A stretch of DNA of 64,000 nucleotides from Takakia lepidozioides. Taxonomy: Eukaryota; Plantae; Bryophyta. The stretch spans positions 18,662,001-18,726,000 of the forward strand of contig CM060732.1 of assembly GCA_030704615.1 (NCBI GenBank). The letters are read 5' to 3'. The position numbers and the translations under genes were made by a program. This document shows, piece after piece, positions 1 through 64,000 of this stretch (the stretch's first letter is position 1; each line of letters opens with the position of its first letter). Below the pieces are notes generated by a model. That model did no database searches, was not told where the DNA came from, and was given only the letters and a program-made list of their open reading frames with translations.

Positions 1-559
1 GGGTTACGAGGTGGTAGACCTTGGCATTCGATCTTCAGCTTCAGAGATGAAAGCACCATGCTGCAGGTAATTCCATAGCACCTTGATGGTTTCAGATTGT
101 GTACATGCATGAGCAAACACGATTGGGAAGATGACCAGTCGCAGGTTATAGTGGCTTTGGTGGCAAAGCGTAGAACAGGACTTGGGAATGCGAGCTTTCA
201 TTGTGTGAAGGATTGCAAGACCAAGCGAAAGGGCTGATTTGGCTTTCAGTGCACTTTGTGGAGTATGTTGAGATTGGGTTTCAATCTCGAGCTTCAGCAT
301 TGAGAGGGCTCTTGTCATGGCAAGAGCAAGGCTGGAACAGGAGCTAAGAGGTGCGACAAGGCCATGTAATGTGCACCTAGGGTTTCAGAGCTTGGAAGAA
401 GAGCCCTTGCACCACAAGAGGAGTCTCTTGTGGCTGGAAATGTAAGCCTTAGGAATTCAGGAGCTTGGCAAAGGCTGTGGAGTGCTTAGTCTTGCCTTAG
501 AGAGCATCAAGGAGCTAAGGAGCCAAGATAGGGGGCTGATACCTCTTGTGTGAAGAGGT

Positions 560-990
560 TGCATTTGTGGAGCATGTAATCAGCTCATTGAAGCTTCCAT
601 CTTCAAGCTTGGAGGGCAAGTAAGGAGGGAAGGGCTGACTTCCCTTATGTGAGGGCAATGCATGTGTGGAGCATGCTTTCAGCCTGTTGAAGGCTTGTAC
701 TTTCAGGTTTTTGGAGTGCAAGAAAGGAAGGAAGGGGCTGGTTTCCATGTAGGGCATGTGTGGAGCATGCTTCTAGCCCGCTGAAGCTTGTATTTTCAGG
801 TTGGTGGGTGCAAAGAAGGAAGCAAAGGGCTGATTCTCTTGTGGTGAGAGTGGGGCATGTGTGGAGCATGCCTTCAGTCCATTGGGCTTTTGTTTTCAAG
901 CTTTAGAGAGCTAGAATGGAAGGGCTAGGGCTGGTTCCCACTTGGGTGAAAGAAAAGCACTTGTAGGGCATATGTGAGGTGGGTTTCAAC
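560..990. repeat. Degenerate ~95-bp repeats (core GCATGTGTGGAGCATG) in the putative 5' leader
   Basis: Core motif recurs at ~562, ~660, ~754, ~855 and ~968. Confidence 0.55.
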
Positions 991-1369
991 CTCAAGCCTA
1001 GATAGAGCATGGCTCTTGAAGTGGCAGGTGTAGGGGTTGGAATAGGCTCTAAGACAGATGCTATGGCCAAGGAAAACGCTTGAATGAGTGCTCACAAGAG
1101 CTGGAAACCAACAAGGCTTGGTTGTTTGCCATTGAGTTTAGTGGCGTGTTTGGGGAGTCTAAGTGAGAAAGAAGGCTTGGTTTGTGGCAACCATCTTCCT
1201 CATGGCTTAGGCTACTATTGGTGGTGTGTGGAGCCGAAAGAGCAAGAATACCTTGCTGATTTCTTCACAGCCGCCATAGCTCGGTGCAAAGAAGCCTAGA
1301 GTCCAAGAGACACAAACCCTAGCTTGGCGTGGCTAAACCCCTTGGAGAAATGGCTAAACTGCCATGAGT

Positions 1370-1900
1370 GGCCATGGATGGGGCTGTGACGGGCTGTGGA
1401 TGCAGGCCGTGATCCTGTGACCTGTGTAGGCCTTTGTGATGGGCTGTGATGGGGCCTGTGACGGGCTGTGACGGGCTGTGATGGCTGTGAGGGATGTGGC
1501 GGGCTGTGACAGGCTGTGCCTGTGGGGCTGTGTGTGTTGTGACAGGCTGTGGCCTTGGGGTTGTGACCCCTGTGACCTGTGTGTGACAGGCTGTGAGGGC
1601 TGTGACGGCTGTGGCCTTTGGGGCTGTGACCCCTGTGACCTCTGTAGGGCTGTGATAGGCTGTGCCTGTGGCCTTTGGGGTTGTGATGGGCTGTGACAGG
1701 CTGTGGCTTGTGGGGCTGTGACCCTGTGACATGTGTAGGGCTGTGACAGGCTATGACGTGTGGCTTTTGGGGCTCTGACGGGATGTGACAGGCCCTGTGG
1801 TGGGCTATGACGGCTGTGACCAGTGATCTGTGTGGGCCTGTGCTGGTCTATGGTGGTTCGTGTTGACCTGTGGACGGCCTGTGCTGACTCGTGGAGGCAC
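1370..1900. repeat. Minisatellite of degenerate 10-11 bp units (GGGCTGTGAC / CCTGTGAC)
   Basis: Dozens of CTGTGA-containing units; the ORFs here are low-complexity translations of the repeat. Confidence 0.85.
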
Positions 1901-2549
1901 TGGTGGACTGCATAAGGACGTGGTCTCGAAGGCCGAATTTTGAAGCTCGTGGAGGGCGGTTTGAGGAGTATCTTCATGATATTCCCATGGTCATACAAGT
2001 GAGGGAAGAGATGAGAAAAAGAGTGTTGGGATGAGGGCATGTTGGGGTTAGGCATTGCTTTAGCTTCTTTTCCTTGTAGTTTTCCACCCTCTCATTAGGC
2101 GAAGACCTTTCCGTAGGTGGAGGCAAGAGTCAGTCCGGGTTTGGGCTGGGGTGTCCTTGCAGAAGCAACACCATGGAGTTGTTTTGGTGTGGGGGAGTTG
2201 TCGTTCTGATTTCTTGTGTTTGGATCCCCTCCATACCTGCATGCTTGACTGTGCACCATGTTAGTTTGTGTGGGCGCTTGTTTTATAGGTGATTGGTCGG
2301 ATTTGATCACCGGCCAGTCCTAGAGCATGTTGTCGATGGTGAGGCTGGGGTGATGACCAGTCAGACCATCATTGTTTCTCCTGTGGTGAGGTTGGAGGTG
2401 ATGACCAGCCAACCATAGGAGTGCTTGCGGTGGATGCAGGTGCAGGTGTAGGCTATGTTAGGAACCTAGTATTCCAAACCATAAGCCGCAACAAGTTCTC
2501 TACCCGGTTACCTTGTGGAGAGGGGGTTAGGGACATGTTCATGACCGGT

Positions 2550-3890
2550 TGAGTGACAGTTTGTCAACACGGAGGTGCCATTAGTTGCTGGGGGGAGTGC
2601 CGGTTCGAGCACTAGCGATACTAGTGGGTACACGAGACGAGGTGTACGGTTTAGGCCACCTTCACCCCCAGTGTCTTCTACGGAAGGTTCTGATTCGGAT
2701 TGTGAATCAGGAGGACTCACACCGGTGGTGTAAGTTGTTTCCTTGCCATTGTTGGGGGACACAATGGAGGAGATGTATGGAGTTACCAAGGGGCCATGAA
2801 GGACTCTGGGGCGGTGGGCACCATCGAGTTGGATGATTTTATCCAAGAGTTTGATAGTTGGTGTGATTTGCAGCAAATGCGCAATCCACAACTATTTACG
2901 CCTTTCATGGCATGGAAGGGGCTGTTTCAAGCCTTGAGGGGCCGCCTATGGATGATTACCATGAGTTCAGGTGGGGGCATGAGGTTGGGATCGAGGAGTG
3001 GAGGATGTACTGGTCACCCGACTATGTCTCCATCGCTAGGGGCACTAGAGCCACGAGGGCAGTGGCTACACCTGCCGCTGCACCGACAGCTTCAACAAGC
3101 AGCAGTGGGACTAGTGGGACTGGTGGTACCGTAGCTACGACGTCCACCCAAGCCACTACCGCACCAGCACCAGTACCCGTGCCTGCCTTCAACCCTGTTG
3201 TGGAGTTCTTCGAAGAGTTAAGAGGGAACTACCAAGGGGTGAGGACAGAGAAGTTGCAGAGCTTGCGAGAGTTCCAACGGAAGCCTACTGAGAGCTTGAG
3301 GGAGGCTTTCACTCGCATGAGGCGCTTGATAAATGTAACCCAAGGGGTTACGGAAGCTCAGGCAGTCCAATTCTGGTATGGGATGGCAGAGCGGATAGAG
3401 CTCAACATGGTGGAGGAACAAGTGGTCATGGTGGGATTTTCTAAGGAGACACCACGGGGTAGTGGTGCTCCTAGCCAACCACTACCTCAACGTGCTCAAG
3501 GCAACAAGCGGGCTCAAGTAAAGCTCAGGGAAGGACAGAGAGGACCTCAGATGCAGGGGTCTCTCCCTTCATTTGTAGGCCAACAACGGGCGGAGTGTGT
3601 GTGTTGGACATGTGGAGGACCCCATGTCAAGAAGGATTGCCCAGAGGGAGGCAAAGGGCCGGCACATGCACAGCCTGCACAATTGCAGTGTGGGCATTGT
3701 GGCACGCACGGGCATGGAGAGGCCTAGTGTTATGGTTTGCATCCTGAGTTGCGCCCAGGCCAGTTCCAAGGGAACAATGGTGGCCGAGGCGAGGTGGAGC
3801 AGCCCAGAGTGGACGAGGTGGCCAGGCACGAGGTGCAGGCCAAGGGCAAGCTCAACATGGCCAAGGACGCGGTGGTCAGGGTGTTGACCA
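2550..3890 (+). pseudogene. Retrotransposon Gag with two zinc knuckles (frameshifted, with stops)
   Basis: ELDDFIQEFDSWCD...; LREFQRKPTESLREAFTRMRRL (retrotrans_gag-like); CWTCGGPHVKKDC (~3602) and CGHCGTHGHGEA*C (~3689). The start is approximate. Confidence 0.8.
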
Positions 3891-4599
3891 AGGCATGGCC
3901 AACCGGCTTCAGCAGCTAGAGCAGAGGCTCGTTGCCATGGCTACAACTCAGGTGGTACCGGCTCCAAGGCCAGATGGTCCACCTCCTGCTCCTGAGGGAG
4001 GAGATATGGGAGGCATAGGATTCATGTGCGGAGCAGCACTACCACTAGTGCAGGTGGAGTCTGCTGCAGCCGTGACTCGAGGAGCAGCACGAGTTCCTGA
4101 GCCACGAGGTGCAGAGGTGGAGTTGGATCCACAGCATGGGGAGGCAAGCCGTCAGGCTAGGCTTCCTCAGTCATTCACATTGGCAGAGACAGTGTCGCCG
4201 CCATCCATGGCACCTAGTTCTCGCCCGACTGTTACCGAGGCGGAGGTTACTATGCCATTGGGGAGAGCTACACGGGCAACACCACTACCTAGTGTTGCCA
4301 AGGCTACGGCAGCTAGTGTGCTACTGGGAGCGGCCACATCTGTGTGTCAGGCTCCATTGTTCACGGCTACCATGATTGCGACGCCGGGGGTAAAACCAGT
4401 TGAGGTGTTCAGGCTGACAGCTACACTCTGTGAGAGTGGGGAGGTTACTTCATCTGCTGCGGAGATAGTGGGAGGTGTAGTGCCGGAGGGATCCTCGGAT
4501 TTGAGGGTAAAGACAGCCACGGCGGCACCATGGCAAGTTGCAGCTGCCAGGGTGATGGAGCTGTCAGCTAGGCCAGCCATTGAGCGCGCCATGGTGACA

Positions 4600-5050
4600 C
4601 CTGGAGTTGTCATGTTAGACAACCAGGATGACATTTTCTGTTTGAGTGGACCGGCAGGCAAGAGGTACCGGCCACTGCGGGTCTTGTTGGACTCGGGAGC
4701 TCAGCCATTGATGCTGGGTAGAGCTGCTATTGCAGGCTTGGGCCTCACAGAGGCGGATATGGAGCCTTGTCCTTTCCAGATACAGACGTCTCTGGGAGGA
4801 TCGGAGCAGGCTCGGGGCATGACACGGCATGAGTTGGCTATCAGACTACGGCCGGATCACCCTACAGATGGCTCAGTGATGCGAGCCAAGGCCATTGTGA
4901 CAGACGCGGTCTGTACGATGTCCTGGTTGGTGGGGCAGTGTTGCCCCATGGGCTTCACCCTGGATTTTTGGGAGGAGTCAGTTTCCTATAGGCCTGGATG
5001 GCAGTCAGGGGAGGGCCAGCGTGTGCAGCTCCCTGTGACGTTCATAGGAG
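4600..5050 (+). pseudogene. Retropepsin-type aspartic protease domain
   Basis: RVLLDSGAQPLMLG catalytic D-S-G motif at 4678-4719, within ORF 3895..5511. Confidence 0.8.
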
Positions 5051-5394
5051 GAGTTGCGGTTGCCCAGCAGGGCAAGATGCCGACACTAGCAGCATTCACA
5101 CCTGCAGTGACTTGGCCTGGAGAGTTGCTAGAGGGCAACGCTCATTCAGAGGGTGACACACCTCCAGGAGAGCAGGATGACATGTATGGTATGGCGGAGT
5201 TGTCTGCCATGGTTGCTCAGACTCCATTGTGGGGCACGAGCAAGGATTTGCAGCGGGTTGCTGATGGACAGGTGCAACAAGCCTGGGTGGAGGCTTTTGT
5301 ACCATCAGGAGAGGAGGAGAGTGTGGGGATTGCACCAGAACCACCTCAGTTGTCACCATTGGATATCACACCTATTGTGTGGCAGTATTTGGAT

Positions 5395-6350
5395 GAAGGC
5401 ATTTGTCTTCTGGACTTGTTTGGCGGGATCAGCACCGGATTGGCTGCTGTGTTACAGGCAGGTGTACGAGTTCAGCGTTACCTGTATGTAGAGAGGGATG
5501 AGACTGCGTGATACGTTTCACTTCGCCATGTTGCTCAGTTGGTGTAGCAGTACCCTGAGTTGTTGCCGGTGTCTACAGTTCGTGGATATCAGCAGGCCTT
5601 GCCAGTAGACATTTCGTTGCTGGGGGCGCAGGATTTGGAGCGGGTTGGCTCAATTGATCTAGTAGTGGCAGGTTGGCCCTGCCAAGGGCATTCATCAGTC
5701 GGGCATGACAATGGATTGCGAGACTCGAGGTCGGGTGTGTTTTGGGAGATGGTGCGGGTTTTGCGCCACTTGCAGCTTCATCAAGCTGTATCTCCAGCAT
5801 ACATCTTGGAGAATGTGTCACTGATGGGTGATCCTTGGGCCAGGGTGATGGCCAGTGTGCATCAAGTCCGGTCGTGGCTTAGGTCAACAGTGTTGCTGGA
5901 TGCAGCTGCAGTGGGGTCACGGGCTCATCGTCCACGGCTATGGTGGACTAACTTGATGTCACCCACACTGCTCAAGCGTGCATTTGATGGGGTGCAGCGG
6001 CCAGCACACCTCACATTGGATAGCATTTTGGACACAGGGAGGCAGTCTCAGCGTGTGAGACACGATGACCGTTCGCCTTTGGCAGTGGTCAACAGGGTGG
6101 GTCAACCACGAGCAGCATTACCTACACTGCTCAACTTCCCAGGATCGCATGTTTTCCGGGATAGTGGACCTGGCCTCTTGTGGGATGCTCTGTTGCAGTA
6201 GTTAGTGGAGCCTAATGCTAACGAGCGTGAGCGGGCAATGGGTTTTACCACTGGTACCACGGCGGTGTCGTCTCTTTCTGAGGCATCACGTCGTCAGGTG
6301 TTGGGGCAAGCAATGGATCTCAATTGCTTGACCTGGATTATCAGCTTGGC
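5395..6350 (+). pseudogene. DNMT3-like C5-cytosine DNA methyltransferase domain embedded in the retrotransposon polyprotein (3 in-frame stops)
   Basis: Motif I LDLFGG (5410), II YVE, IV DLVVAGWPCQG (catalytic Cys 5680-5682), VI YILENV (~5809), VIII AHRPRLWWTN, IX ERERAMGF, X RRQVLGQAM. ORFs 3895, 5560 and 6205 share one frame, broken by TGA 5509, TAG 5545 and TAG 6199. Confidence 0.92.
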
Positions 6351-6689
6351 TATGGCTGAGCAACGCAGAGTGCGGAGTACACTTCCTTCGATGGTATCTC
6401 TGCCTACCGAGACGGTACAGGCAGTGAGTGGGGGCGAGCATGTGAGGACCACGGGGTATAGGCATCCATGGCACACGTGGGAGGTGCTCGAGGTTCAGAG
6501 GGAGTTGGCAGCCAAGGTGGCGGTGATGGATGAGGTTGGGGATTTTTCTCGGGTGGAGGAAGTCCTCGAGGTTGAGATGATGGGGCAGGATGAGGCCTTG
6601 TCAATGATTGAGCAGGTAGGGAGTATTGCTCAAGAGGTTGCAACATAGCAACCATTGGACGGGTCCTCTTACCTCTAAGCCCACTGAAC

Positions 6690-7730
6690 TTAAGGTTGCA
6701 GTTACGGAGGACAATTGGAAGCCTGACATTGGACCCATTGTCACTGGAGGAGAGAGACAACATATACGGTGGTTCCTGAGGGCTTATAGGAATTGCTTTG
6801 CCTTCAGTTTGAAGGACTTGAGAGCACTGAAGGGTCAAGAAATCCGTATTGAGTTGGCCACTGACACGCCAATCTTTTGGAGACCCTATAGATACAGTGA
6901 CATGGAGAGGTCTTTGATTCAGATGAGGACTCAAGATCTTTGGGAGGCAGGTTTGGTGGAGCTCTTTGGTGGAGAGTATGCTTCAGCCACAGTGATGTCA
7001 GCCAAGAAGGATGTCTATGGCAATTGGACGGAGAGACGTATGTGCGATGATAACCGGCCTGTAAATCGTCAGACCAAGTCCGATAAGTATGCCATGCCCA
7101 CACCGGAGGAGATCTTTGATGCCATTGGGCATGCTAAGGTCTTTAGCACTTTGGATTTACAATCCGGATATCACCAGTTGTCAATCAAGGAGGCGGACAA
7201 GCAGAAGACGACATTCTGGGGGATCAATGAGCACGGCAATGATTGCCTATATCAGTGGCGGTTCTTACCATTTGGGCTTAAGAACGCTCCCGCAGAGTTT
7301 CAGAGAGTCATGGATAGGATTTTAGCAGGGGTGGACTTTGCTCGGTGCTACATAGATGACATCATCATCTTTAGTGCTACGGTGGAGGAGCATGAGAGAC
7401 ACCTTCAGGTGGTATTGGAGCGCTTGAGAGCGCACGGATTGAAGTTGCATCCGGGGAAGTGCAAGTTTTTCCACAACCAGATTGAGTATCTGGGTCACAT
7501 GATATATCCTGGAGGATTGGGGGTACAGCAGACTAAGGTAGAGGCCATTGCACAAACTCCACACCCCACGGATGTGAGCCGAGTTTGAGCTTTCATGGGG
7601 TTGACAAACTATTATAGACGGTTTGTCAAGGGATTTAGTGCCATTGCAAAGGCTCAAACCAAGCTGACCAAGGTGGACCAGGAGTGGCAGTGGGAAGATG
7701 AGCAGGAACAAGTTTTCAAGAGCTCAAGGC
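6690..7730 (+). pseudogene. Gypsy-type reverse transcriptase
   Basis: ORF 6626..7588: RRMCDDNRPVN, DKYAMP, FSTLDLQSGYHQ, LPFGLKNAPAEFQR, YIDD, KLHPGKCKF, YLGH. It continues past the TGA at 7586 (AFMGLTNYYRRFV). Confidence 0.95.
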
Positions 7731-7734
7731 GAGG

Positions 7735-8145
7735 TTGACTTCGGCGCCTATCCTGAGACGACCTATCAGGGGGCGTCCCTTTCAGCTGCATACGGATTGG
7801 AGCATGCTGGGGCTTGGAGCGGTGCTCACACAGGTGGATGATGAGGGAAGAGAGTTCGTAGTGGCTTATGCTAGCCGCTCGAACTACGCTGCAGAGGCTA
7901 AGTATAGCTCATATGAGGGAGAGTGCTTAGCTGCAGTGTGGGCCGTGGCACACTTCTGGTGCTATCTATACGGCAATCTCTTCACCCTTGTCACAGATCA
8001 CCAGCCACTCAAGTGGTTGATGGAGTCAGACAAGCTTATGGGGAAGCTTGCACGGTGGGCACTCATACTCTAGGAGTATGACTTTCAGGTTGTGCATCGA
8101 CCGGGTTTGGTCAATCGGGATGCAGATGGATTGAGTCGCAATCCA
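7735..8145 (+). pseudogene. Ty3/Gypsy RNase H
   Basis: PFQLHTDWS..GLGAVLTQ..VVAYASR..YSSYEGECLA..LVTDHQPL..LARWALIL*EYDFQVVHRPG..NRDADGLSR. Confidence 0.93.
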
Positions 8146-8301
8146 TGCATGAGCCAGCAAGATGACACTGAAGCTCGGTGGCATGGTGAGACAGACGAGG
8201 AGATGCTGCCATGATGGCATGCATCTGTCTTTTCGTGTATCTTCGGGAGGTCAAGTTGGACCTACAACAGGGATGACTGTAGACGGAGTGTCTGAGGACC
8301 G

Positions 8302-8406
8302 CTGGTGTGTGATCGATGCTCAAGAGGTTGGCATATGGGATGCTTGACACCACCTCTTGAGAGGGTTCCCGATGGAGATTGGTTATGTCCACACTGCTTG
8401 GGATAG
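8302..8406 (+). pseudogene. C-terminal part of a PHD zinc finger
   Basis: Manual translation from 8302: [34 protein letters not shown], matching CxxC..HxxC..PPL..VP.GDWxCPxC. The N-terminal CxxC is missing. Confidence 0.85.
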
Positions 8407-8666
8407 TGGCAGTGGACATGACTAGAGGCAGCTAACAAGACATGGGAGGCCAAGCTCATAGGAGTCAATATACGAGATCCTAGGCTCAAGTTCACAGGTT
8501 GCAAGACGGCGACTAACAATGGGGCAACTCTTGCACCCGGTCTCTTGATCTATCGAGTTTGAGTGTAGTAGGGACAGTGGTGGAGGACATAGTGAGGCTA
8601 TGGTCACTATCACATCTTGTGGCTACCTGGACTTAGAGGGACCTAAGCACCAGCTAGGGGGGCGAT

Positions 8667-9329
8667 TGTGTGGACTAGTGACTGCCATAGTGGGCAGCAT
8701 AGTGGCAGCCTAGTGTCTGACTAGTTGTAGCCTAGTGGTTGGACTAGTGGTTGGACTAGTGTGTGGCGTGCACATTTGTTGTGTGGTTTTGGACAGCGAT
8801 GTAGTTGTGTAGCGATATGTATGCGCACGATAGTTGTCAAGTTATTTTACCACTAGTGTGAAACTAGCTAGGAAATAGCTAGCTTTTACATATTGACATT
8901 TGGGATTGGCCCAAGTGTCAATCCAGGGGTCAAGGCAGATTTAGGCTCTGGAGTGGTTATCTTCACGGCAAGCGCGGGAGGCTCATCTTTCTCGAGTTGA
9001 GCCTCACCGCGCCTAGCTATGGTGCCGTAGTGTGGATTCCCCATGGCGTGGGGTGGACTTGGCTTGACTTGTATTTGAGTGATGAATTTATATATGCATG
9101 AGTTTATGCTTCAGCTTTGTGAGCTTGCATGAGCTTGTGCTTGTATTCTTCTTCTTTATCTATTGTGTGGACTAGTGACTGCTATAGTGGGCAGCATAGT
9201 GGCAGCCTAGTGACTGACTAGTTGTAGCCTAGTGGTTGGACTAGTGGCTGGACTAGTGTGTGGCGTACACATGTGTTGTGTGGTTTTGGACAGCGATGTA
9301 GTTGTGTAGCGATATGTATGCGCACGACA
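8667..9329 (+). repeat. 3' LTR-like block (TG...CA) bounded by 166-bp direct repeats (8667-8832 and 9164-9329)
   Basis: Starts TGTGTGGACTAG just after the PPT and ends CGCACGACA. The two 166-bp copies differ by only a few substitutions. TATA-like TTTATATAT at ~9087. Confidence 0.75.
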
Positions 9330-11050
9330 TGTGAGTGGAAGGTTTGGTTGTGAGGCCCGGGTGAACTTCCTTGTATGCCCCCTAGGTGATCGTGGAAAAT
9401 ATAGTGATGAGGTAGTGCTTGAGGTGGGTTTTGAAGAACTCCTGTATTTTTGCCTTTATCATAGGGTGTGGGTCACTGTATGGCGGGCATGTGACAATGA
9501 AGGCCTTGACATCCGCTGTGGTAATCCATAGTGATTCCAGGCATTCTATGTTTCCAGAGGAGATAAGAATGGACGGAGGCTCACCTTTCCTGAAGATCAA
9601 GGGAGTAACACAAGATGCCCTGGGGATATCATCCGAGTCCAACTGTGAACATCCCCCTAGGATCAGTTTGGGGTATGTGTTGAGTCTTGTGAGGCACAAT
9701 CTAGCCACGATTGGGTTGCTGGCTATGCCTAACTGCATGCTTTTGTAAATGCCCCTTGGATCCAATTCCGGTTTCAGGCCAGCCTTCTGGGATTTGGGTT
9801 GCCTTTCCCTCCCTTGCTCACTACATTTTCCTTTCCCTTTGTGTGCTGGTGGGAGCATCTTCCTAGCTTCGAGATACATGGGATCTGAGTGTTGTCCATG
9901 TATCCTTGGTTCCCTTGGCGTTGGACTGATCTGCAACAGGTCTGTGTTTTGGGCTATCTTTCCGTGTGCCTCCTTTTGCCCAGCTTGGGGGAGGGCGTCT
10001 TTTTTCCTCCATTGCTGATTGAGTGTAGTGGGCCTGACTTACCTCCTGATCCTGGGGATCTTTTCATTTTCCCCGAGGGACAGTCAGCTTTGATATGGCC
10101 TGTTTTTCCACAGTTGAAACACGCTGCCGAGGTCTTCTCCTCCAGCAGTCTGATTGTAAAGTAATTACCTTCCTCATCGATGGGGAGTCTTACATAGTCC
10201 GGGATTGTGTCTTCCTCCGGCATCATAACCATTTTTGCAAATCCATTATCATTTGGCCTTGATGCTATTGTGGCATGTTTCCATGCCGGGTATTTTCTAA
10301 TGCTGTCAGTGTTCATGAGTGGATCAAACACTCCCAGGCAACCCAGAAAGGATCCAAAGTGGTTGGCAATGTCAGGGATGTTGAGAAGATACTGGTCTGG
10401 AATATACGGAAGACTCTACTATTCTTGGACCCCACAACTTCCCGTTTTGTGTCCCCACTTTGCTGACCATGGAAAGATATTTATGTTAAACCCCAGCAAG
10501 TGTGGGTTGATCTGGAGGGCTTTTGCCGCTGCCTCTTGAGTCTCAAATTGCATGGAAAAGAAGCCTCTGCCTTTGGCGTGGCAGAAATGATGCAAGGGCT
10601 CACCCCCCCCTCCCAAGTGCTTGATTGCCCAGTCCCTCACAAATGATCTACCCACTTTCTTACCAGGGAAGTGGACGAGGATTCCGCCGTCTTCCATGCA
10701 GGATACCCTGCTTTTGAGGTCTGGCATGTCCACTAGTATAATCTGGTGGTCCCCACTGAGGCCTTCCTGCGTGGTAATGAGGTCTTCCCCCACCAGGTCG
10801 CCTTCCATCTGATTTTGAATATGAGTTGCCTCCATCTGTTGTCTTGCAGGTATGAACATCGGCTGAGGTTCCAGTGCAAGCTGAAGGGCTTGAGTTGGAG
10901 GTGGTGGTGGGCCCTGCATCGTGTGTGCAACTGTAGGCGGATGAGGATTCGTGGTATCTCTTGTAATCAACTGCCCCCTTCTCTCTCCTATCCCCGTTAT
11001 TTCTTGTCCTCAATGTGACAAAGATGTTTTTATCCCCGAAAAATAGCAAA
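9330..11050 (-). mobile_element. L1-clade LINE ORF1 remnant (DUF4283/RRM-like plus CCHC zinc knuckle), cut at the Gypsy LTR
   Basis: KGRGFFSMQFETQEAAAKALQINPHLLG..NIFPWS (10419..10970) and CFNCGKTGHIKADC (9954..10331); frameshifted. Confidence 0.75.
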
Positions 11051-11512: not shown

Positions 11513-11706
11513 CGGGTATATGAATTACCCTGATATACCCGGGAATAAGGGTATACATCCGGGTACCTAAACTTGCCACACCAGGGTATATATATATCAA
11601 TATACCCTGATATACCCGCCGGGTATATGAATTACCCTGATATACCCTGATATATATATACCCTGGTGTGGCAAGTTTAGGTACCCGGATGTATACCCTC
11701 ATTCCC
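11513..11706. repeat. Fold-back inverted repeat (~59-bp arms 11540-11598 / 11648-11706) with internal GGGTATAT/ATATACCC motifs
   Basis: GGGAATAAGGGTATACATCCGGGTACCTAAACTTGCCACACCAGGGTATATA... is matched by its near-perfect reverse complement ~50 bp downstream. Confidence 0.85.
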
Positions 11707-12845: not shown

Positions 12846-13269
12846 TTATGGCTCTGGCTTACCCATACTCGACAGGTGTTTGCTAAGAAAAATGCTCTCC
12901 CAACCCTCCTAAATCGTACCTAATCCTACTCCCTAATGAATCCTCCCCAAGTACTAGAGGCACGTGTCACTCCCTCCGCAGTTCTAAGTGATATGACGCA
13001 ATGTGCAATGAAAAAAACGTGGGTGCCAGAGGAGGGCTTCTTGGGAGGTACTCAGCATCGATTTTGTAGAAACCAACGGCCAAAAATACCCCCCACCCAA
13101 CCAATAGCACCCCTCTCCACTCGGACTCAACGACAAGGAATGCAACATCCCATCGCCCACCAAGTCCTGGTGTGGAGAGAAGTGAGGGAGAGAATGGCCT
13201 CGAAGGTCTTATAAGCCCCCCTCCACACTCGGGGCGCGCGCTGTCATCATGACTACGCACGCTAGTAAT

Positions 13270-13840
13270 AGCTGCGACCGCCAGCAGAAGGTGGTCGATC
13301 ATTTATTTATTTATTTATTTATTATGTGCGACCACCAGCAGGGGGGTGGTCGCAGAATTTTTCTTTTTTTAATAGGTGCGACCACCAGCAAGGGGGTGGT
13401 TGCAGATTTTTTTTTTTTTTTAATAGGTGCGACTACTAGCAGGGGGGTGGTCGCAACAATTTTGTTTAAAAAAAATAGGTGCGACCACCACCTGCTGGTG
13501 GTCGCACCATTTTCCTTTTCTTTAATAGATGCGACCACCAGCAGGGGGGTGGTCACATAATTTTCCTTTTTTCTAATAGCTGCGATCACCAGCAGTGGAG
13601 TGGTCGCACCATTTTTACCAGCAAGGGGGTGGTCGCATAATTTTCCCTTTTTAAATAGCTGTGACCACCAGCAGAGGGGTGGTCGGAACATTTTTTTTTT
13701 TGTTAAATAGGTGCGACCACCAGCAGGGGGGTGGTCGCAACATTTTTATTTTTTTATTTTAACAGTTGTGACGACCGCTACTGGTGGTCGCACAATTGTT
13801 TATTTAAAAATAGGTGTGACCACCAGGAGGTTGGTCCCCC
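13270..13840. repeat. Array of ~12 palindromic units TGCGACCACC-AGCAGGG-GGTGGTCGCA separated by T/A tracts (period ~51 bp)
   Basis: Units at ~13273, 13327, 13377, 13428, 13480 (inverted), 13531, 13581, 13618 (half), 13660, 13712, 13769 and 13815. Confidence 0.9.
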
Positions 13841-14184
13841 TGCACCTGTATGTTTGTTTGGAGAGGCAGATGAAAAGCACATGTAGCGACTCCCCACGGA
13901 CTTGTGAAGAGGAAGATGAATGTTGGGAGCTGCACCTGGCCTTTGTGGCTTTCGAAACCATAATAGGAAATCAACAATGTACAAGTAATGACGAAACACA
14001 AACACACACACACAACCACCAAACCCTTTCTTGGGTATACATATTCCACCATTTTTTTTTCCGTACACGTATGCATGTACCCAAACTGAAACATGGATAT
14101 CCATGGAAACATACTACACATCATGTAACAGAGTTTATAGCTATACCTAGTTCCGTCTGGCACGACGACGATGGCATGTTCTCA

Positions 14185-17120
14185 CGCCCAGTACAAAATC
14201 TTAGATAACTTGCCGTTAGCCCAGGAAATTCCAGTCTTTGCAAAAAAAACCAACCAGGCTATTGCAATGCTCCTTCTTGACTTTGAAAAGACATTCGATA
14301 GAGTGGAGTGGTCCTTCCTACTCGGGGCACTCCACAGGGTGGGAATTTCCCAGGAGTTCTGCTCAAGGGTTCAAACACTATTGATGGGGTCGTCCAGCAG
14401 GGCTCTCCTCAACGGGCATCTATCCAAGTCATTTCCACTGTCCGGTCGGTATGCCAGGGGTGCCCCCTGTCCCCCTTCCTCTTCATAATAGCAACAGACA
14501 CGCTGGGCCATATGATGGAGGCAAGTCACCACATCACAGTGGTCTTCATATTACAAATCACTTCACTAGACAACTGCAACAAATTAAAGAATCCATGTTC
14601 GTAGACGATGCGTTCCTAGCTTTACAGGCCACACACTCCAATCTAGATAATGCTAGCAGTTTACTGCAAGCATTTTGCCAGGCTTCTGGATTCAAGGTTA
14701 ACTGGGGCAACACGTGTGCCCTTCTGGTGGGAGAAACCTCGGCCTCAACTCTGGGAGTTGACCCAATTTGGGGACGAGATAAAGGTCTTAGATGAGGCTT
14801 AGTTGGCTGAAACCAGGGCAATCAACAACCTTGCTAGGTTATACGTATGGCATAGATCTATCGGATCAACAGATTTTTGAGGCAACGCAAGCCAAATTTA
14901 AAACCAAGCTGGCTCATTGGGGCAGCTACCATTTGTCTTTAACTGGTAGGGTGCTGGTAGCCAATCAGGTCCTATCAGCTGGCCAATGGTATTTCGCCTC
15001 AGCATGGAGGCCCAACGAGATGCAAGTGGGTGAAATGAAAAAGCTCCTGCGCAACTTTGTCTGGGGGCAAAGCACCCCCGGAGAAAAAAAGGCCACAGGT
15101 GTCGTGGAAGCAGATATGCCTGCCAAAGAAGAAAGGGGGACTGGGCATTATAGACCCACAAACTCAGTTTACTGCACTCCTAGCAAAATGGATCCCCAGA
15201 TTTATGGGACCAGAAAGAGGGGTCTGGAAACACCTGGTATGCGACAACATTGCCTTGGCCTCTCCGCTGAAGACGGTTATCTAGAACCCTTCTTATAGAT
15301 GGATGGTAAATGGCTTCAAACATAAACAAGTCGGATCCCCCCTGTGGACGGCAATCTGGCAGGCATGGGCCAAGCTCAGGCCCTATCTTACAAAATCAGA
15401 CCCGGAATCGTACGAAGAAACCCTCCGCCAATCCCTGTTTCTCAATACCAATATCCCACATACAAATCACAAAAATTAGGCTCGCAAATGGTCTGCCTGG
15501 GAGGTACATGGCATTCATAAGGTCAAACACATCTGGTCGAATGCCAGCTTCCGGTCAAAAGATCAAATTGCAGCCTCCGTAGGTGCAGCCAGAGCCACCA
15601 AGTCATACGATACCATTTTCCGATCAGTGTCAGCACTGTGGCTACCTAAACTTATTAAAGGCCCAGTAATGCCCAATGACACTTTCTGGACGCTGGGATT
15701 AATCAACAGCACTATTACCATTCTGTTTGTCACCGAAAAAACCGAATACCAATTCTCCGGATATCACTTTCACTGCGAAGTGAACTCCATGAGGCTTACC
15801 CTTCAAAACCGTCAACCCCTAGCCACCCCTCGTTTCACCCACACCCCCATAAGGGTTTGTTGGTGGTCATCCCCAACTAAGGAGATGAACCCTCTCTCAC
15901 CGCTCACCACTTCCCTGATAAGCTGGCTGGCCAGTCAAACATTTGTTTGGATTGGTGGGAGACCCCTATAGGATCTGGACATGGATCCCAAAGAGTGGCA
16001 GTGGAATTTCAGGCCATCCCCCAAGCCATTCTTTGAGTACACAACCAAAAAAGCATACTCGACAATGCTGAACCCCCAGCCCCTATTGGGTAAATGGAAC
16101 GAGAGATGGAGTCACCTGAACTTCCAGATTGAAAACTGGAACTCCATCTGGGGGACGATGTGGAAAACAAACAGACCAGCCAAGGTAGCAGCGTTTCTTT
16201 GGCAGATAACAAACAGGGCAATAAAAGTGGGGGAATGGTTGGGATTTGATGCTGCCCTCCTTTGCAAATGCTGTTCGGCTGCCCTAATGGAAACAGTAGA
16301 GCACTGCCTGCTCCACTGTCACGGACTAGCAGCAGTCTGGCCCCTCGTCACAAGCTTCTACAGAACCTGGGGGCACATAAACCTCACCCCGGCGGCCATT
16401 CTGCTGAATGATGACCCAGCAACAAAAACAAAAGCCAATCACTGCCCAGTTTACGATACTCTTAGAAGCGCTACGCTCTAGCACCTCTGGAAAATCAGAT
16501 GCGAAAAAACTTTCAATGCAAAACAACTAGAACTTCCTCACTCCTCGCAAAAATCTACATGGACATGCAAATTGAAGCCAGGAAAGTGTGGAAAAAACTA
16601 TGTGCAGATATCGAGAGAGCACGATCGGACCAACAAGCTACCCAGCTACACTCTACCTTCATTGCGACATGGGGGCGGAATGGGATTATCTGCAACAGCC
16701 CCAATCTGGATCGCTGCGACTGGAACAAACTGCCCCCAAGGGCTTGGAAAGACGGCACGGGTACCGTCCACAACAATCCGCTGAAGCAGGCCTAACCGTA
16801 GCTAGTTTTTGACTCTAGCAGCTATGGTTTTGAGGAACATACATTATCGAATCCGGTGGGATCACCACCACTTAGCAGCATTATGCAAAAAGGCCTAAGG
16901 CCTCAGGCTAGACAATTCGTTATTACTCATCATGAGTGGTTAGGCTCCGATTCACTGACTACGGTGTGTGTGCCTTATGGCGTAATCAGAGGGTTTAATT
17001 TTTTCCCTCCCAATAACCATCTATGTAAGGGCCTCGCCCACCAAAAATATTTCAGAATAAAGTTAACCAGGGCTCCAACCCTGTTAGCCCAACAAAAAAT
17101 AAAAATAAAAAATAAAAATT
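14185..17120 (+). mobile_element. 5'-truncated L1-clade LINE: degenerate ORF2 (RT plus zf-RVT), 3' UTR and A-rich tail
   Basis: LLLDFEKTFDRVEWSFL, QGCPLSPFLF, MFVDDA, SGFKVNW, LSLTGRVLVAN, SWKQICLPKKKGGLGI, CKCC...ETVEHCLLHC; (AAAAAT)n tail at 17094-17119; many frameshifts. Confidence 0.9.
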
Positions 17121-41520: not shown

Positions 41521-41609
41521 AACGATTGATTATGAATCATTCAACAGGGGAACTGTTGGTTCACATCAATCCAAAATCATTTGGCAGGGGAATGATTGGT
41601 TCACCCATA

Positions 41610-41910
41610 GCCAATTTCAGGGGCTGGACTTGCAATTTGAGGGGCTGAAATTGCCATTTCAGGGGCTGGATAAGCAATTGCCATTTCACAGGCTACAACT
41701 GCAATTTGAGGGGCTGGAATTGCCATTTGAGGGGCTAGAATTGCAGTTTGAGGGGTTGGAATTAAATTCCAGGGGCTTGAATTGCAATTTGAGAGGTTGG
41801 AATTGACAATTTCAAGGGCTCAAATTACAATTTGAGGGGCGGCCGGAGTTGGCCATTTTAGGGACTGACATTACCAATTTTAAGGCCCTGAATTGCATTT
41901 TGAATTGTAA
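41610..41910. repeat. ~21-bp minisatellite (TTGCAATTTGAGGGGCTGGAA)
   Basis: About a dozen degenerate tandem units. Confidence 0.8.
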
Positions 41911-43712: not shown

Positions 43713-46700
43713 ATGGATACGCTTGACTCAGACATCGCTAAGGTGCAGGAGGAGCGGCGCAAGAAGGAGGCGGAAATAGTTACTTTGACGTCGTTGAGGT
43801 TTGACAAGGATTTGTATGGGGCAGACAATAGGTTTGAGGGATATGAGCTGTCGATCCCAGTGAATGAGGATGATGAGGATCAGAGGGATCCTACAGAGAG
43901 GGAGTTTGCAAGAAAGCTGGAATCGTACACTGCTCCGAAGTCTGTTCTGTCTGATTTACCGAGAGGGGAGATTAGCGATGACCAGCTGGGGTTTAAGAAG
44001 CCGCAGCGGATCATTGACAGGGAAGACGACTACCGCAAGAGGAGGCTCACGAGGATTATTTCACCTGACAGGAATGACGCCTTTGCCATGGGTGATAAGA
44101 CTCCCGATGCGTCGGTGCGGACGTATGCAGATGTCATGCGGGAGGAAACCCTGAAGCGTGACAAGGAGGAGACCTTAAGGCTGATTTCTAAGAAGAAGGA
44201 GGAAGAAGCTGAAAGGAAAGCAAAGGAGGAGTCTAGTGCCCCAACCAAAGCACAGGCAGCGGCTGCAGCTGCCGCTGCCGCACAGAGTGCAGGTTCCAAG
44301 AGAAGAAATAGGTGGGATTCCACTGAGCAAGAAGAGGCAAAGAAGTTGAAGAGTGGATCAGAGTGGGATGGACCTGATGCGACTCCAGGCCCTAGTAGGT
44401 GGGATGCTACTCCCACTCCAGGACGTGCTAATGTGGATGCCACTCCCACAGCTGCACGGCGGAATCGGTGGGATGAAACCCCCACCCCTGGGCGTGCATC
44501 GGATGCTGATGCAACCCCTGCCGGAGGGGCTACCCCAGGGGCCACTCCTGCAGGGATGACTTGGGACGCAACACCGAAGCTTGCTGGACTAGCAACTCCG
44601 ACACCAAAGAAGCAGAGGTCTCGATGGGATGAAACTCCCGCCACAATGGGAAGCGCAACTCCGTTGCCAGGGGCTACCCCTTCCTTCACCCCTGGTGTGA
44701 CTCCAATGGGTGGGATGGAGCTTGCCACTCCTACCCCTGGCCAGATTGCGTTACGGGGGCCCATGACGCCAGAGCAGTACAACATGCTGCGCTGGGAGAA
44801 AGACATTGAGGAGAGGAATCGCCCTCTTTCTGATGAAGAATTGGAGGCAATGTTCCCTATGGATGGCTATAAAACCCTGGATCCCCCTGCGTCTTACGTG
44901 CCAATTAGGACCCCCGCTCGAAAGCTTCTCGCAACTCCGACGCCCCTGGGTGGGACTCCACTGTACACCATACCAGAGGAGGATCGGTTACAACAGTACG
45001 ATGTTCCAAAAGAAGCAGCGGGAGGGCTGCCGTTCATGAAGCCTGAGGACTACCAATATTTTGGAGCTCTCTTGAGTGAGAAGGAAGAAGAGGAAATGAC
45101 CGCAGAAGAGAGTAAGGAACGGAAAATAATGAAGCTACTTCTCAAAGTTAAGAATGGCACTCCTCCACAGAGGAAAACCGCACTCCGGCAGCTGACAGAC
45201 AAAGCCCGAGAATTTGGTGCTGGACCACTCTTCAACCAAATTTTGCCATTGCTCATGTCTCCAACACTTGAAGACCAGGAGCGGCATCTTCTGGTGAAGG
45301 TAATTGACAGGGTTCTCTACAAGCTGGATGAGCTGGTGAGGCCATTCGTTCACAAGATTCTTGTGGTGATTGAGCCACTTTTGATTGATGAAGATTACTA
45401 TGCACGTGTGGAGGGCCGAGAGATCATATCTAATTTGAGTAAGGCTGCTGGATTGGCAACAATGATTGCTGCAATGAGGCCCGATATTGATAACATCGAT
45501 GAGTATGTGCGGAACACGACCGCAAGGGCTTTTAGTGTTGTGGCTTCGGCCTTGGGCATTCCTGCACTACTACCCTTTCTGAAAGCTGTCTGTCAGAGCA
45601 AGAAGTCATGGCAGGCACGGCATACAGGTATCAAGATTGTGCAGCAAATTGCCATTTTGATGGGGTGTGCCGTGCTCCCTCATTTGAAGTCCCTCGTGGA
45701 AATCATTGAGCATGGTCTGAATGATGAGAATCAGAAGGTTAGAACCATCACTGCTCTGTCCCTGGCAGCTCTTGCAGAGGCAGCAGCACCCTATGGTATC
45801 GAGAGCTTTGACTCTGTCTTGAAGCCTCTCTGGAAAGGAATCAGATCACACAGGGGCAAAGTGTTGGCAGCTTTTTTGAAGGCAATTGGGTTCATCATTC
45901 CCCTCATGGATGCAATGTATGCAAGCTATTACACCAAGGAAGTGATGGTTATCCTGATAAGAGAATTTCAATCCCCAGACGAGGAGATGAAGAAAATTGT
46001 CTTGAAGGTAGTCAAGCAGTGTGTGAGCACAGAGGGGGTGGAGGCCAACTACATCAGGTCAGAGATCCTGCCAGAATTCTTTCGCAATTTTTGGGTGCGG
46101 CGAATGGCTCTGGATCGCAGGAACTACCGGCAACTGGTTGACACCACGGTTGAGATTGCCAACAAAGTTGGGGTGGCTGACATAGTGGGACGAGTTGTAG
46201 AAGATTTGAAGGATGAAAGTGAACCCTACAGGCGCATGGTGATGGAGACGATTGAGAAAGTAGTTGCCAACTTGGGGGCTTCAGATATTGATGCTCGACT
46301 GGAGGAACTCCTCATTGATGGCATTCTATATGCATTTCAGGAGCAGACAAGTGATGATGCAAATGTGATGCTCAATGGGTTCGGTACAGTGGTGAATGCA
46401 CTAGGTCAGAGAGTGAAGCCATATCTCCCTCAGATCTGTGGAACTATCAAGTGGCGCTTGAACAATAAGAGTGCCAAGGTGCGACAGCAAGCTGCTGACC
46501 TTATCTCCCGCATTGCAGTTGTGATGAAGCAGTGCCATGAGGAGCAGCTGATGGGGCATTTGGGGGTTGTTCTGTATGAGTATTTGGGAGAGGAGTACCC
46601 TGAAGTCCTTGGCTCAATTCTCGGGGCACTGAAGGCGATTGTGAATGTTATTGGTATGACAAAGATGACACCTCCCATCAAGGACTTGCTACCTCGTCTG

Positions 46701-47555
46701 ACACCCATTCTGAAGAACAGACATGAGAAGGTGCAAGAGAACTGCATCGATCTGGTGGGTCGGATTGCCGACAGGGGAGCTGAGTTCGTTCCAGCACGTG
46801 AGTGGATGAGGATATGTTTTGAGCTTCTGGAGATGCTGAAGGCCCACAAGAAAGGCATTCGGCGGGCAACCGTCAACACGTTTGGTTATATTGCGAAAGC
46901 AATTGGGCCCCAGGATGTATTGGCCACTCTTTTGAACAACCTTAAGGTGCAGGAACGGCAGAATCGAGTGTGCACCACCGTAGCCATAGCGATTGTGGCT
47001 GAGACATGCTCTCCCTTCACAGTGCTTCCAGCCCTTATGAATGAGTACCGTGTGCCGGAACTCAATGTGCAAAATGGTGTTTTGAAGTCTCTTTCTTTCT
47101 TGTTTGAGTACATTGGAGAGATGGGGAAGGATTATATCTATGCAGTCACCCCACTTCTGGAAGATGCATTGATGGATCGTGATCTGGTTCACAGACAGAC
47201 TGCTGCCTCAGCTGTGAAGCATATGGCACTGGGTGTTGCAGGACTTGGGTGTGAAGATGCTCTGGTTCACTTACTGAATTTTGTATGGCCCAACATTTTT
47301 GAGACATCGCCACATGTTATCAATGCTGTCATGGAGGCAATAGAGGGCATGCGGGTGGCACTGGGCCCTGCAATTCTCTTGAGTTACTGCTTGCAGGGTC
47401 TATTCCACCCTGCAAGGAAAGTGCGCGAAGTCTACTGGAAGATCTACAACTCACTCTACATTGGCTCACAAGATGGCCTTGTAGCTGCATATCCCGTGTT
47501 AGAGGATGATGGGGCAAATTGCTACAGCCGACCAGAGCTTACTATGTTTATTTGA
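43713..47555 (+). CDS. SF3B1: Splicing factor 3B subunit 1 (SF3b155), 1280 aa, CDS without introns
   Basis: [18 protein letters not shown] start; [16 protein letters not shown] and TP repeats; [11 protein letters not shown]; [24 protein letters not shown]; HEAT repeats; C-terminal [19 protein letters not shown]. The ORF-track extension from 43422 (non-ATG start, CT microsatellite) is taken as 5' UTR. Confidence 0.97.
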
Positions 47556-50500: not shown

Positions 50501-52974
50501 AGAGTGCCATCCGGGGATGGTGGGTTCAAATCCTGCTAAGTATTTGTGTGTTCTCCCCTACGCTTGGGCGGTGGCCCTTGAGCCTTGTGCTTGCCGCATC
50601 ATGGCGGGTTACTTCAAAGGAGGTTATATTTTCCTGTCAATTAAGGGGGGTCGATTTTGTGCGTAGTCGGTGGTGCTTGTTTCTTTTCTTTTTTATAGAC
50701 ATATTCAAGACCTGTTTGCGTATTAACCCTTAACTTCCTACGCGACCCCAATCGAGTCTCGACTTGTAAGAAAATGGGGATATCTTGCTGAGATGTTATT
50801 GAAATTAAACGATTCCTGAAGCAATAATTTGCTGACAACATAGTCCCCACCCACAAATTGAATTGAAAGTGTTTGGAGTAAGACCTTGCAGAATTTCGCA
50901 AAAATGCTTGGGTTAGGAATCATGTGGTAAGGAGAGGGGCCACGCAGGGTTGACCACCTGCGTGGCAACTTTATATTGCTGCATACACAGCCGTCCTAAA
51001 ACCCTGAGTTAGCCGCCGGTAGGCAAGAACTCGACTGCCTGCTATGACATGAAAGCCACCCGCTTTGGCCTTGCCACGCGGGCCCCCAAGATATTCAGGG
51101 TGGCATAGGGTACTACTTCTAGTGGTTTTTCTTCTTCACCTTCATCGTGTTGCTTGTTGGGCCCAATGTAGGTGCGATGGTTGATTTCTTCTCTTGTTGT
51201 CATGTATTGCAGGTTGCTGTGGGTGTGGGCTGTGTGAGTAGAGGACGATTAAGTTTTCACAATGGAATGTACCCTAAGAAGGGTCTGGCTGCAGCTGCTT
51301 GTGTCTGTAGGCAATGTTGTGTTACTGTTTTGACGTCCTGCCAGTAAAGAGCATCTCCACGGTGAGCACGGCCCGTCAAACGTTATATACCCTGGTTACA
51401 AGGGTGACAGTAGTTTTAGTTTTTAAGGGGAAGGTTTGGTTGGCACTCCATGGTTGGGACGGTAGCAGACCCGACATGTCCGCGAGGCAGGCCCCCCGCC
51501 CAATCACAATCCTGGCACGTATTGCCTTGAACACCCTTCAATGTGCAGCTAAGTGCCGAAGCCCACATCCAAAGCCCACATTCGCACTTCGGTTCCTGCT
51601 GTCTTATGTGCATGACTTTATTCCTACACTACATAGCTGCGATTAAACTTGCTTAGGATTGCTTGTTCTTTCTTTTCATCTTGGCATTGTAGAGAGCTAT
51701 GTCGATGCACGACTTTGGTGCTTCTTAGCATTTTTAGATGGGTTAGGCTCGATTCTGGCCAAAAAAAAAAGTTTGTAGCTCGTATTTGGGTAGTTTTAAC
51801 TTTTGTGATAGGGAAGGCCCCAGCCCGAGGGCGTTCCGCGATGTGAGGGTTGGCTGCCGAGGGCGTTAGCCCGAGGCTAGCAGCCCGAAAATCGCGGAAC
51901 GCCCGCAGGCTGGGGCCTTCCGTTTCGTGAAGCATCGTTCAGATTTTCCCTGCCAGGAGGCATCTTACAAAGTGTAAGATGCCTCCGACCAAGCTGGGAG
52001 GCTCTTATGTGATTCGTAAGATGCGTCTGAAGCTGGAGCCCATTCTTTGCGTGGGGAGGGGCGTCAAATAACAAAGGAAAAATCTGACGGTTTTTTTCTT
52101 AGAGTCTCAGGAATGTTGTTCCATACCTGATAACCCATGTCATCTGAGATTTTCAGTTTTTTTTTTGTATGTTCTCAAGTGGGCTCCTTTGTAGTGACAA
52201 ATTGGGGGGTCAAATTATTCCCTTTTCTTTGGGCAGGCCAAATGTCTCTTCCTAAAATTCTACACAACAAATCAGCATTTCAATTCGTAATTCCTCCATA
52301 TTAAGTCCTAAAAAACAATTGCGACCAATCAGGCAATGGAATTGTACTTTTTAGGTTCCTTGCCCACGCTTGACTTCACATGGCACACCTAGGATATTTT
52401 GAGCCATAGCCCAAAAGTGTACCAGGTTTCGGGGAGGGTAGGTAGCGCGTGAGCACGCTCATTTGAGCACAAGGGCATATTCCCCGAATTTCCACGAAAT
52501 TTCCGTGAAATTTACACAGCGAAACGGAGTTGGTGAAATTAACAATATTGCGAAATTCTAACACCTAAAGAACAAATAGCCCTTTTACTTGATGAACATG
52601 TTACCCTATAAGCGTGGTTTTTTCTCACGATACTAGGCCCTTTCATAACAGGCACGAGAGTGGGTGGTAAGGCCTAACCTTAAATTTACGATCATCGCCC
52701 ATGGATAATTTCGCACGGCGAAACTTTGTACCAACCAGCCTGAGAAGAAATCACACTGTAGCTGAAATGATGAATAGGTCATTTTTAAAGGCCTTACCCA
52801 TGTATTATTTTGCAGAACGAAACTCTCTCTCCTAACATCTAGTATAATTACATATTGGGATATACATTTGCAGTGCGAAACTCTGATCCCTGTAGAGAGG
52901 TTGGGTACCGTGCAGTTAGGATGCTCACAAACATGAAAAAATATGAAAAAAAATTCTTGAGATGCCCAAAGAAA

Positions 52975-63710: not shown

Positions 63711-64000
63711 GTAAAAAAGAGAAGGGGTGACAGCATGAGAGGATGAAATAAATCATTATGCAGTAGCCTTGTGGCATAGATCTTGCATCAACATTTGAGG
63801 GAAAGTAGGTAGGGGGGAAAAGCAGGAGAGTCAAATGGGGTGACCACCATCATGCAAGGACTATATCATTACCATGACCAGCCTTCAGAAATGAAATTGT
63901 TCCTTGCCTTCTAAGCTTTTCCAGCATGCTTTGATGGTGTAGGAGTTGGACCCAATGAGTGTCAGTGTTTTCAGCATAGTGAGGAAATTGTGTGTGGTCC

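Follow-up and report, generated by a model that had tools for sequence, protein, structure and literature searches.

Why retrotransposons carry cytosine methyltransferases has been a question since 2018, for which dinoflagellates and Klebsormidium made difficult test systems. It arises again at a locus of the moss Takakia lepidozioides, within a 64,000-nucleotide stretch of contig CM060732.1 (assembly GCA_030704615.1, positions 18,662,001 to 18,726,000, forward strand), hereafter called the window. [quoted passage not shown] We found that the element belongs to a Gypsy-type family present in high copy number in this moss, and that this copy is decayed and has lost its integrase. Pfam matches and motifs bear out that such an element in a land plant has its own intronless DNMT3-like C5-MTase between the protease and the reverse transcriptase (RT). 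On balance, we lean towards a reading in which this moss and liverwort family joins Gag, protease and MTase in one open reading frame (ORF) that ends at a leaky stop, so that the enzyme is made at the level of Gag and probably methylates the element's own cDNA.

The coding part of the window copy comprises the following features, in order:

2560–3785 (+): decayed gag, start approximate, with a Retrotrans_gag match below the cut-off (E 0.0014) and 39–49% identity to the gag of the retrieved loci
about 3602–3640 and about 3689–3730 (+): two CCHC-like knuckles in gag, read from the sequence without a Pfam match
4561–4998 (+): aspartic protease, LLDSGA at 4684–4701, with a weak Asp_protease_2 match (E 0.033)
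5395–6340 (+): DNMT3-like C5 cytosine methyltransferase domain, motifs I–X in canonical order, premature stops at 5509, 5545 and 6199
6646–6654 (+): stop of the first ORF (ORF1) and candidate readthrough site, TAG CAA CCA, a CAR-YYA context (signal as given in PMC2754532)
6704–7585 (+): RT, YIDD at 7349 (RVT_1, E 3e-32)
7702–8100 (+): RNase H (RT_RNaseH, E 1e-32), with a frame break near 7712 and a stop near 8071
8300–8301 (no strand): deletion joint, about 1.39 kb including the integrase gone, with loose ends in host sequencing runs
8302–8397 (+): C-terminal part of a PHD finger (PHD, E 1.4e-9), the domain that ends Pol in relatives

The MTase itself was recognized by Pfam as DNA_methylase (E 2e-11). 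Its motifs lie in canonical, unpermuted order and without introns in the forward frame of LLDSGA: LDLFGG (5410–5427), GWPCQ (5671–5685), ENV (5809–5817), AHRPRLWWTN (5923–5952), ERERAMGF (6223–6246) and RRQVLGQAM (6289–6315). The single reading frame reported earlier thus holds for the motifs, but the MTase contains its three premature stops, and protease and MTase share a frame in the window only because frame breaks near 4913 and 4943 cancel each other out, the second half of the protease between them being scrambled; a relative, P0152, gives a clearer Asp_protease_2 match (E 3e-6). Coding does not begin at 3895, as had been proposed, since gag lies upstream and, in relatives P0124, P0185 and P0198, runs on into protease and MTase. 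The gag region carries stops, frame breaks near 2931, 3598 and 3785 and a short deletion at 3384; the breaks near 4913, 4943, 6669 and 7712 complete the list of frame breaks, and loose ends are seen at 3384 and 8300/8301. Relatives have the order protease, RT, RNase H and rve integrase. The distance from RNase H to the PHD finger is 232 nt in the window, where the integrase is deleted, versus 1537–1623 nt in 26 matches in the loci.

The element is high-copy in the host's sequencing runs: in run X1, 75,722 pieces of contigs fall on 2000–9600, on MTase and RT alike, although such pieces stand for presence and not for copy number. The contigs cover the MTase throughout, and no well-supported joint skips it. 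At the 6669 break, contigs unlike the window make up 22% (X1), 21% (X2) or all (X5, X12) of the depth.

The domain resembles DNMT3 more than DRM, DNMT2 or bacterial MTases, by sequence profile and by modelled fold. The window MTase was translated with X at the stops, and a profile built from 34 sequences was run against solved structures; DNMT3A (E 9e-23), DNMT3C and DNMT3B came ahead of DRM2 (3e-9) and DNMT2/M.HhaI (1e-6), and the profile is collinear with DNMT3A. A predicted structure (predicted local distance difference test, pLDDT, 78; residues 242–280 unresolved) had DNMT3A as its best Foldseek match (E 3e-18), with DNMT3 structures in all the top ranks. Motifs, profile and fold are therefore all nearest DNMT3A, in line with the DNMT3-like character first proposed. 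An Atlas search returned generic C5-MTase clusters only, the first of them one streptophyte. Among the aligned homologues, 127 of 137 retain the catalytic Cys and 154 of 166 the Glu of motif VI; for the Arg of motif VIII the counts are 151 of 176 and 156 of 175. Pfam found no PWWP, ADD or chromo targeting domain on the MTase in the window or its relatives.

The homologues make the DNMT3-like domain a trait of the family and not an accident of one copy. At least 183 were listed (the best 120 of 189 in one search, all 63 in another), those named being from Marchantia polymorpha, M. paleacea, Calypogeia fissa, Riccia sorocarpa, three Sphagnum species, Closterium and Haematococcus. The same element occurs in Marchantia, Calypogeia, Riccia and Sphagnum, with relatives in Closterium and Haematococcus; M. 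polymorpha alone has at least 15 homologues in one search, up to 71% identical. No fern, lycophyte, hornwort, seed plant or Klebsormidium name appeared among the matches listed. Many of the 80 metagenome loci retrieved carry gag, protease, MTase, RT, RNase H, integrase and PHD finger. The divergent subfamily of loci L058, L068, L070 and L073 (MTase 41–46% identical to the window) was encountered as overlapping inverted pairs of fragments. Viral contigs yielded one locus and prokaryote genomes two, of which L081 (CADCWO010000201.1) is the only family member: a plant retrotransposon on a 9.3-kb contig in a cyanobacterial metagenome-assembled genome (MAG), circular in the assembly through a 127-nt overlap of its ends, and likely a contamination there. 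P0027 is likewise labelled a bacterial MAG protein.

A profile search gave 515 clusters at E up to 1e-30. Among the best 150, 102 carry another retroelement domain, the MTase standing before RT or after the protease in 20 of these and after RNase H or before the integrase in 82; this second order is the one seen in Haematococcus. A large clade (P0178, P0398, P0165 and P0167, with the 82 of 150 representatives) has the MTase between RNase H and integrase, and Haematococcus is its sole named member. In 29-row trees, both unrooted, 14 land-plant-type rows group by RT (100/99) and by MTase (91/98, not starred), and so do the eight with the second order; the two trees broadly agree, with two rows placed differently.

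The relatives also show how the MTase stands to RT. The frameshift that had been placed near 6640 proved to be two things: the true ORF1/RT junction is an in-frame stop at 6646–6648, and the change of frame, which puts RT out of frame with ORF1 in the window copy, is a separate decay break near 6669. Nor does the MTase lie inside Pol; it closes the Gag-protease ORF, upstream of the stop. In relatives, Gag-protease-MTase and RT-RNase H-integrase-PHD lie in one frame, separated by a stop, and the long Marchantia and Calypogeia-cluster proteins are Gag-protease-MTase products that end 96–100 residues past motif X. We compared 54 distinct MTase–RT junctions. In the 36 that keep the frame there is always at least one stop (a single one in 28), and the last stop always has the form TAR CAA YYN; over all 54, whatever the frame, this motif is present in 49. 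CAR YYA following UAG is the readthrough signal of tobacco mosaic virus (TMV) in the portion of PMC2754532 available. Exact CAR YYA was found in four lineages besides the main subfamily: the window (TAG CAA CCA), L037, the L058/L068/L073/L079 group, and L081. In L081, with an MTase 49% identical, two uninterrupted ORFs are parted solely by TAG CAA TCA. By sequence and by analogy, the conserved stop appears to be a TMV-type readthrough context and is likely leaky. Since the MTase lies ahead of it in the Gag-protease ORF, it is probably made at the level of Gag and not as part of Pol; most of the product would be ORF1, only rarely extended by RT-integrase, and a Gag:Pol ratio of about 20:1 is the rule (PMC2194720, available part).

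Selection was analysed on 51 of 84 records, those with one long match. Between the window and 50 loci, the MTase shows a pN (proportion of nonsynonymous differences) of 0.22 at a pS (synonymous) of 0.72, and a median ratio of nonsynonymous to synonymous rates (dN/dS) of 0.10 (45 finite values), a rough figure because dS to the window is near saturation. The corresponding RT value is 0.09 (29 of 31 finite), and 232 MTase pairs at dS > 0.4 give 0.26. The sequences thus indicate that the MTase is under purifying selection between lineages and conserved about like RT. None of the contrary findings named in the earlier note turned up: numerous copies in several species carry the domain, and the dN/dS check that the note had called for gave values far below 1 between lineages.

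The ends of the element are not those of an LTR retrotransposon in the ordinary sense, and in this respect the original label does not fit. In relatives, the 5′ end carries a repeat A and the polypurine tract is followed by a block B-NN-A-B, giving split repeats of the form A-coding-B-NN-A-B and no pair of ordinary LTRs. The window retains the 3′ block:

8656–8665 (+): polypurine tract; an AGGGGGG tract precedes repeat B in eight loci and L081
8665–8832 (+): repeat B, first copy, 97% identical to 9162–9327
8833–9161 (+): 2-nt spacer and repeat A, the latter starting TGTCA at 8835
9162–9329 (+): repeat B, second copy; the element ends GACA at 9329

Host-run depth drops in the bin from 9366, just past this 3′ end. 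The arrangement A-coding-B-A-B is complete in L051, L052 and L056, and the window has B-A-B only; no 5′ copy of A was found in window positions 1–2760 (score 27 versus a shuffle maximum of 31). Elements begin TGTCA and end GACA, and the inner joint, GACA-NN-TGTCA, recurs in L081 and, with one change, in the window (8829–8839). TG...CA ends, target duplication and polypurine tract are all present, but two complete flanking LTRs are not, since the 5′ end has A only and the tract precedes B, not A. A 4-bp target duplication flanks six of six loci with both ends in view (five independent sites). A B end is present in 20 records: eight are of this long form, nine end after the first B, one is cut off and two lie elsewhere. 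The short form, with target duplications seen in three of the nine, may arise by B-B recombination or by an integrase cut at the inner joint. Inspection of four loci by eye showed no TGG-led candidate primer-binding site after A1, and no tRNA gene lies in the window.

From these observations a life cycle can be proposed. Packaging of RT and Pol needs fusion to Gag. The Gag-protease-MTase product would build the particle together with a minority of readthrough Pol, readthrough occasionally adding RT, RNase H, integrase and PHD finger. If the stop is read through only now and then, as seems likely, the MTase would be present in Gag-like amounts. The protease would then free the MTase, which would probably methylate the new double-stranded cDNA before or at insertion, and the PHD finger might guide integration. 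What the element would likely gain is new copies already marked, on arrival, like host heterochromatin. Symbiodinium retrotransposon DNMT3 domains do methylate CG in yeast, according to the available part of PMC5890265.

Several points weigh against this proposal, the near-saturated dS being one. Most of the 36 in-frame junctions belong to one subfamily (CAA CCC), which brings the independent count to five lineages. This context, the commonest (31 of 36), departs from CAR YYA in the final base, and an ATG comes after it; in 24 of 25 aligned loci such an ATG stands two codons past the stop. The algal-type relatives P0388, P0405 and P0159 have no stop here and a single open ORF, so bulk MTase synthesis is not required by all members. 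An RNA stem 3′ of the stop is suggestive only: its z scores are −4.0 in L081, −2.4 in L012, −0.5 in the window, −1.0 in L001 and +0.8 in L024, L081 has other RNA windows at −3 to −4, and 6 of 27 predicted stem pairs show any two-sided change. The gag-pol junction of Tca2 has promoter activity (PMC2194720, available part). In close pairs (dS < 0.1), dN/dS is 0.91 for the MTase (42 pairs) and 0.72 for RT (17 pairs); values near 1 are expected of dead copies and on their own lend no support. MTase activity is a prediction from sequence and model, and the domain of KnitGypsy-Dnmt3 gave no methylation in yeast, a result its authors call "inconclusive" (PMC5890265, in part). No CpG depletion was seen as a trace of self-methylation: observed/expected CpG is 0.49–0.78 in four elements, compared with 0.49 for a host gene and 0.36–0.39 for two Gypsy pieces nearby.

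How far do these points favour other explanations? An intronless, DNMT3-like domain could in principle be a host DNMT3 retrocopy or insertion captured once, by the window copy alone. The same MTase position in liverwort proteins and in many loci, together with the agreeing trees, rules this out; host-run contigs also run through the MTase without a well-supported skipping joint, and the host gene MpDNMT3b (Mp5g09290) is not among the named matches listed. We give such a capture practically no chance, and the single-copy and retrocopy objections raised beforehand fall with it. RT-integrase might instead be expressed by reinitiation, an internal promoter or splicing, with the MTase still made alongside Gag. 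The downstream ATG and the Tca2 promoter speak for this, but the window, L037 and L081 lack an ATG at that position, the strict frame and CAA-YY conservation over five lineages would be left without a reason, and free Pol would have no Gag for entry into the particle; we regard it as decidedly unlikely.

Other alternatives accept the anatomy and question what the MTase does. Whether released or still fused, it may act mainly outside the particle, in the nucleus, methylating existing copies or host DNA and so damping the family or altering host silencing. Gag-level amounts do seem excessive for one 9-kb cDNA, and ideas of host benefit and copy control were raised by de Mendoza et al. (PMC5890265, available part). 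Fusion to Gag points to the particle, however, the MTase has no targeting domain of its own, and the PHD finger lies on the integrase side of the stop, which leaves a nuclear role unlikely, if not far-fetched. The domain might also serve the particle structurally or by binding DNA or RNA, or it might methylate RNA instead of DNA. This would suit the Gag-level amounts, the inactivity of the Klebsormidium domain in yeast (PMC5890265, in part) and the absence of CpG loss, but S-adenosylmethionine-binding and catalytic residues persist in about 85–95 per 100 homologues, dead copies included, and the closest enzymes are DNA MTases, with DNMT2 far behind; we attach little credence to it. Methylation of the element's own cDNA by a Gag-level MTase remains the reading we favour. 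A wider picture built on it is, to our minds, possible but doubtful: an ancient green-plant Gypsy-type lineage, from chlorophytes to mosses and liverworts, might deploy DNMT3 at capsid stoichiometry to insert pre-methylated copies, without ordinary LTRs or a tRNA primer, its ends rebuilt from an internal CA-NN-TG junction that a DDE integrase would cut like a circle junction. The chlorophyte-type branch has the MTase elsewhere, and the land-plant branch would have added a leaky stop that raises its dose.

The rest of the window contains an intact intronless SF3B1 gene (43713–47555, +; 1280 amino acids). Its nearest named match listed is from Sphagnum (83% over residues 1–330), and a 21-row tree places it in a moss clade (100/99), outside the Ceratodon group. 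Next to the element's 3′ end are broken ORFs with a CCHC knuckle (9385–11009, −), probably ORF1 of another element, and further on a 59-nt inverted repeat (11541–11706, 98% complementary), resembling a miniature inverted-repeat transposable element, and a decayed RT with zf-RVT of the long interspersed nuclear element type (14141–16480, +). Tandem arrays occupy 52972–54690, 13263–13830, 41593–41831 and 1380–1850, with units of about 117, 51 and 21 nt and short GCTGTGAC-type units. A dispersed repeat family (D7, D9, D10, D13, D15) extends over 18729–63018 in both orientations, several copies lying beside GA microsatellites, and an exon with a PCI domain (63189–63743, +) probably belongs to a proteasome lid subunit.

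Retrotransposon-borne DNMT3 has been known as a kind since 2018. Our search, which did not reach subscription journals, Repbase or REXdb, found no paper on bryophyte or land-plant copies, a leaky stop or these termini. In its available part, PMC12344493 mentions only "streptophytes and dinoflagellates", citing the 2018 work, and the element goes unmentioned in the available parts of PMC5784723 and PMC9985172. The copies of M. polymorpha are unnamed and annotated "hypothetical protein". Because an element of the same kind is present in many copies in this species, a genetic model with methylation mutants, the question of why retrotransposons carry such enzymes becomes testable. The finding also bears on how many DNMT3 genes are counted in bryophyte genomes; a likely recoding site and, alongside a DDE integrase, an unusual terminal structure come with it.

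REM1, a green-algal Gypsy element, reportedly has a PHD finger in its polyprotein. Gypsy-7a_cRei of a green alga shares this feature, and its published description, as far as available, lists no MTase (PMC9940879). Host plant DNMT3 enzymes (PpDNMT3, MpDNMT3a/b) have the same unpermuted DNMT3-type catalytic domain but are host genes and not parts of a polyprotein (PMC6453930 and bioRxiv 2021.02.12.428880, in part). The in-frame UAG followed by CAA-YY(A) is shared with TMV-type readthrough, MuLV, SIRE1 and Tca2; in MuLV/SIRE1/Tca2-type elements the stop comes after gag, whereas here, as read from sequence, it comes after protease and MTase (PMC2754532, PMC2194720, available parts). SymbioDIRS-Dnmt3 likewise combines a retroelement DNMT3-like domain with A-coding-B-A-B repeats and two coexisting domain orders, but uses a tyrosine recombinase (PMC5890265, in part). 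A tyrosine recombinase and the absence of target duplication define DIRS and Ngaro elements; our family has rve and H2C2 integrase domains and 4-bp duplications. Closest is KnitGypsy-Dnmt3 of Klebsormidium nitens, with Gypsy domains, an intronless, unpermuted DNMT3-like domain in the polyprotein, purifying selection and, from the legend of Fig. 4c, DIRS-like split repeats (PMC5890265, in part). There, DNMT, RT and RNase H share one ORF, whereas here an in-frame stop intervenes; and that paper sees an acquisition in the K. nitens lineage, whereas here the hosts are bryophytes, with relatives in liverworts, mosses, Closterium and Haematococcus. The proposed extension of a Klebsormidium-type family into land plants therefore stands insofar as the moss copies are related in kind, but it reaches wider than one land-plant lineage. 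Compared by published description, and because the single ORF is not shared, the family is a relative of KnitGypsy-Dnmt3 and not a member of it.

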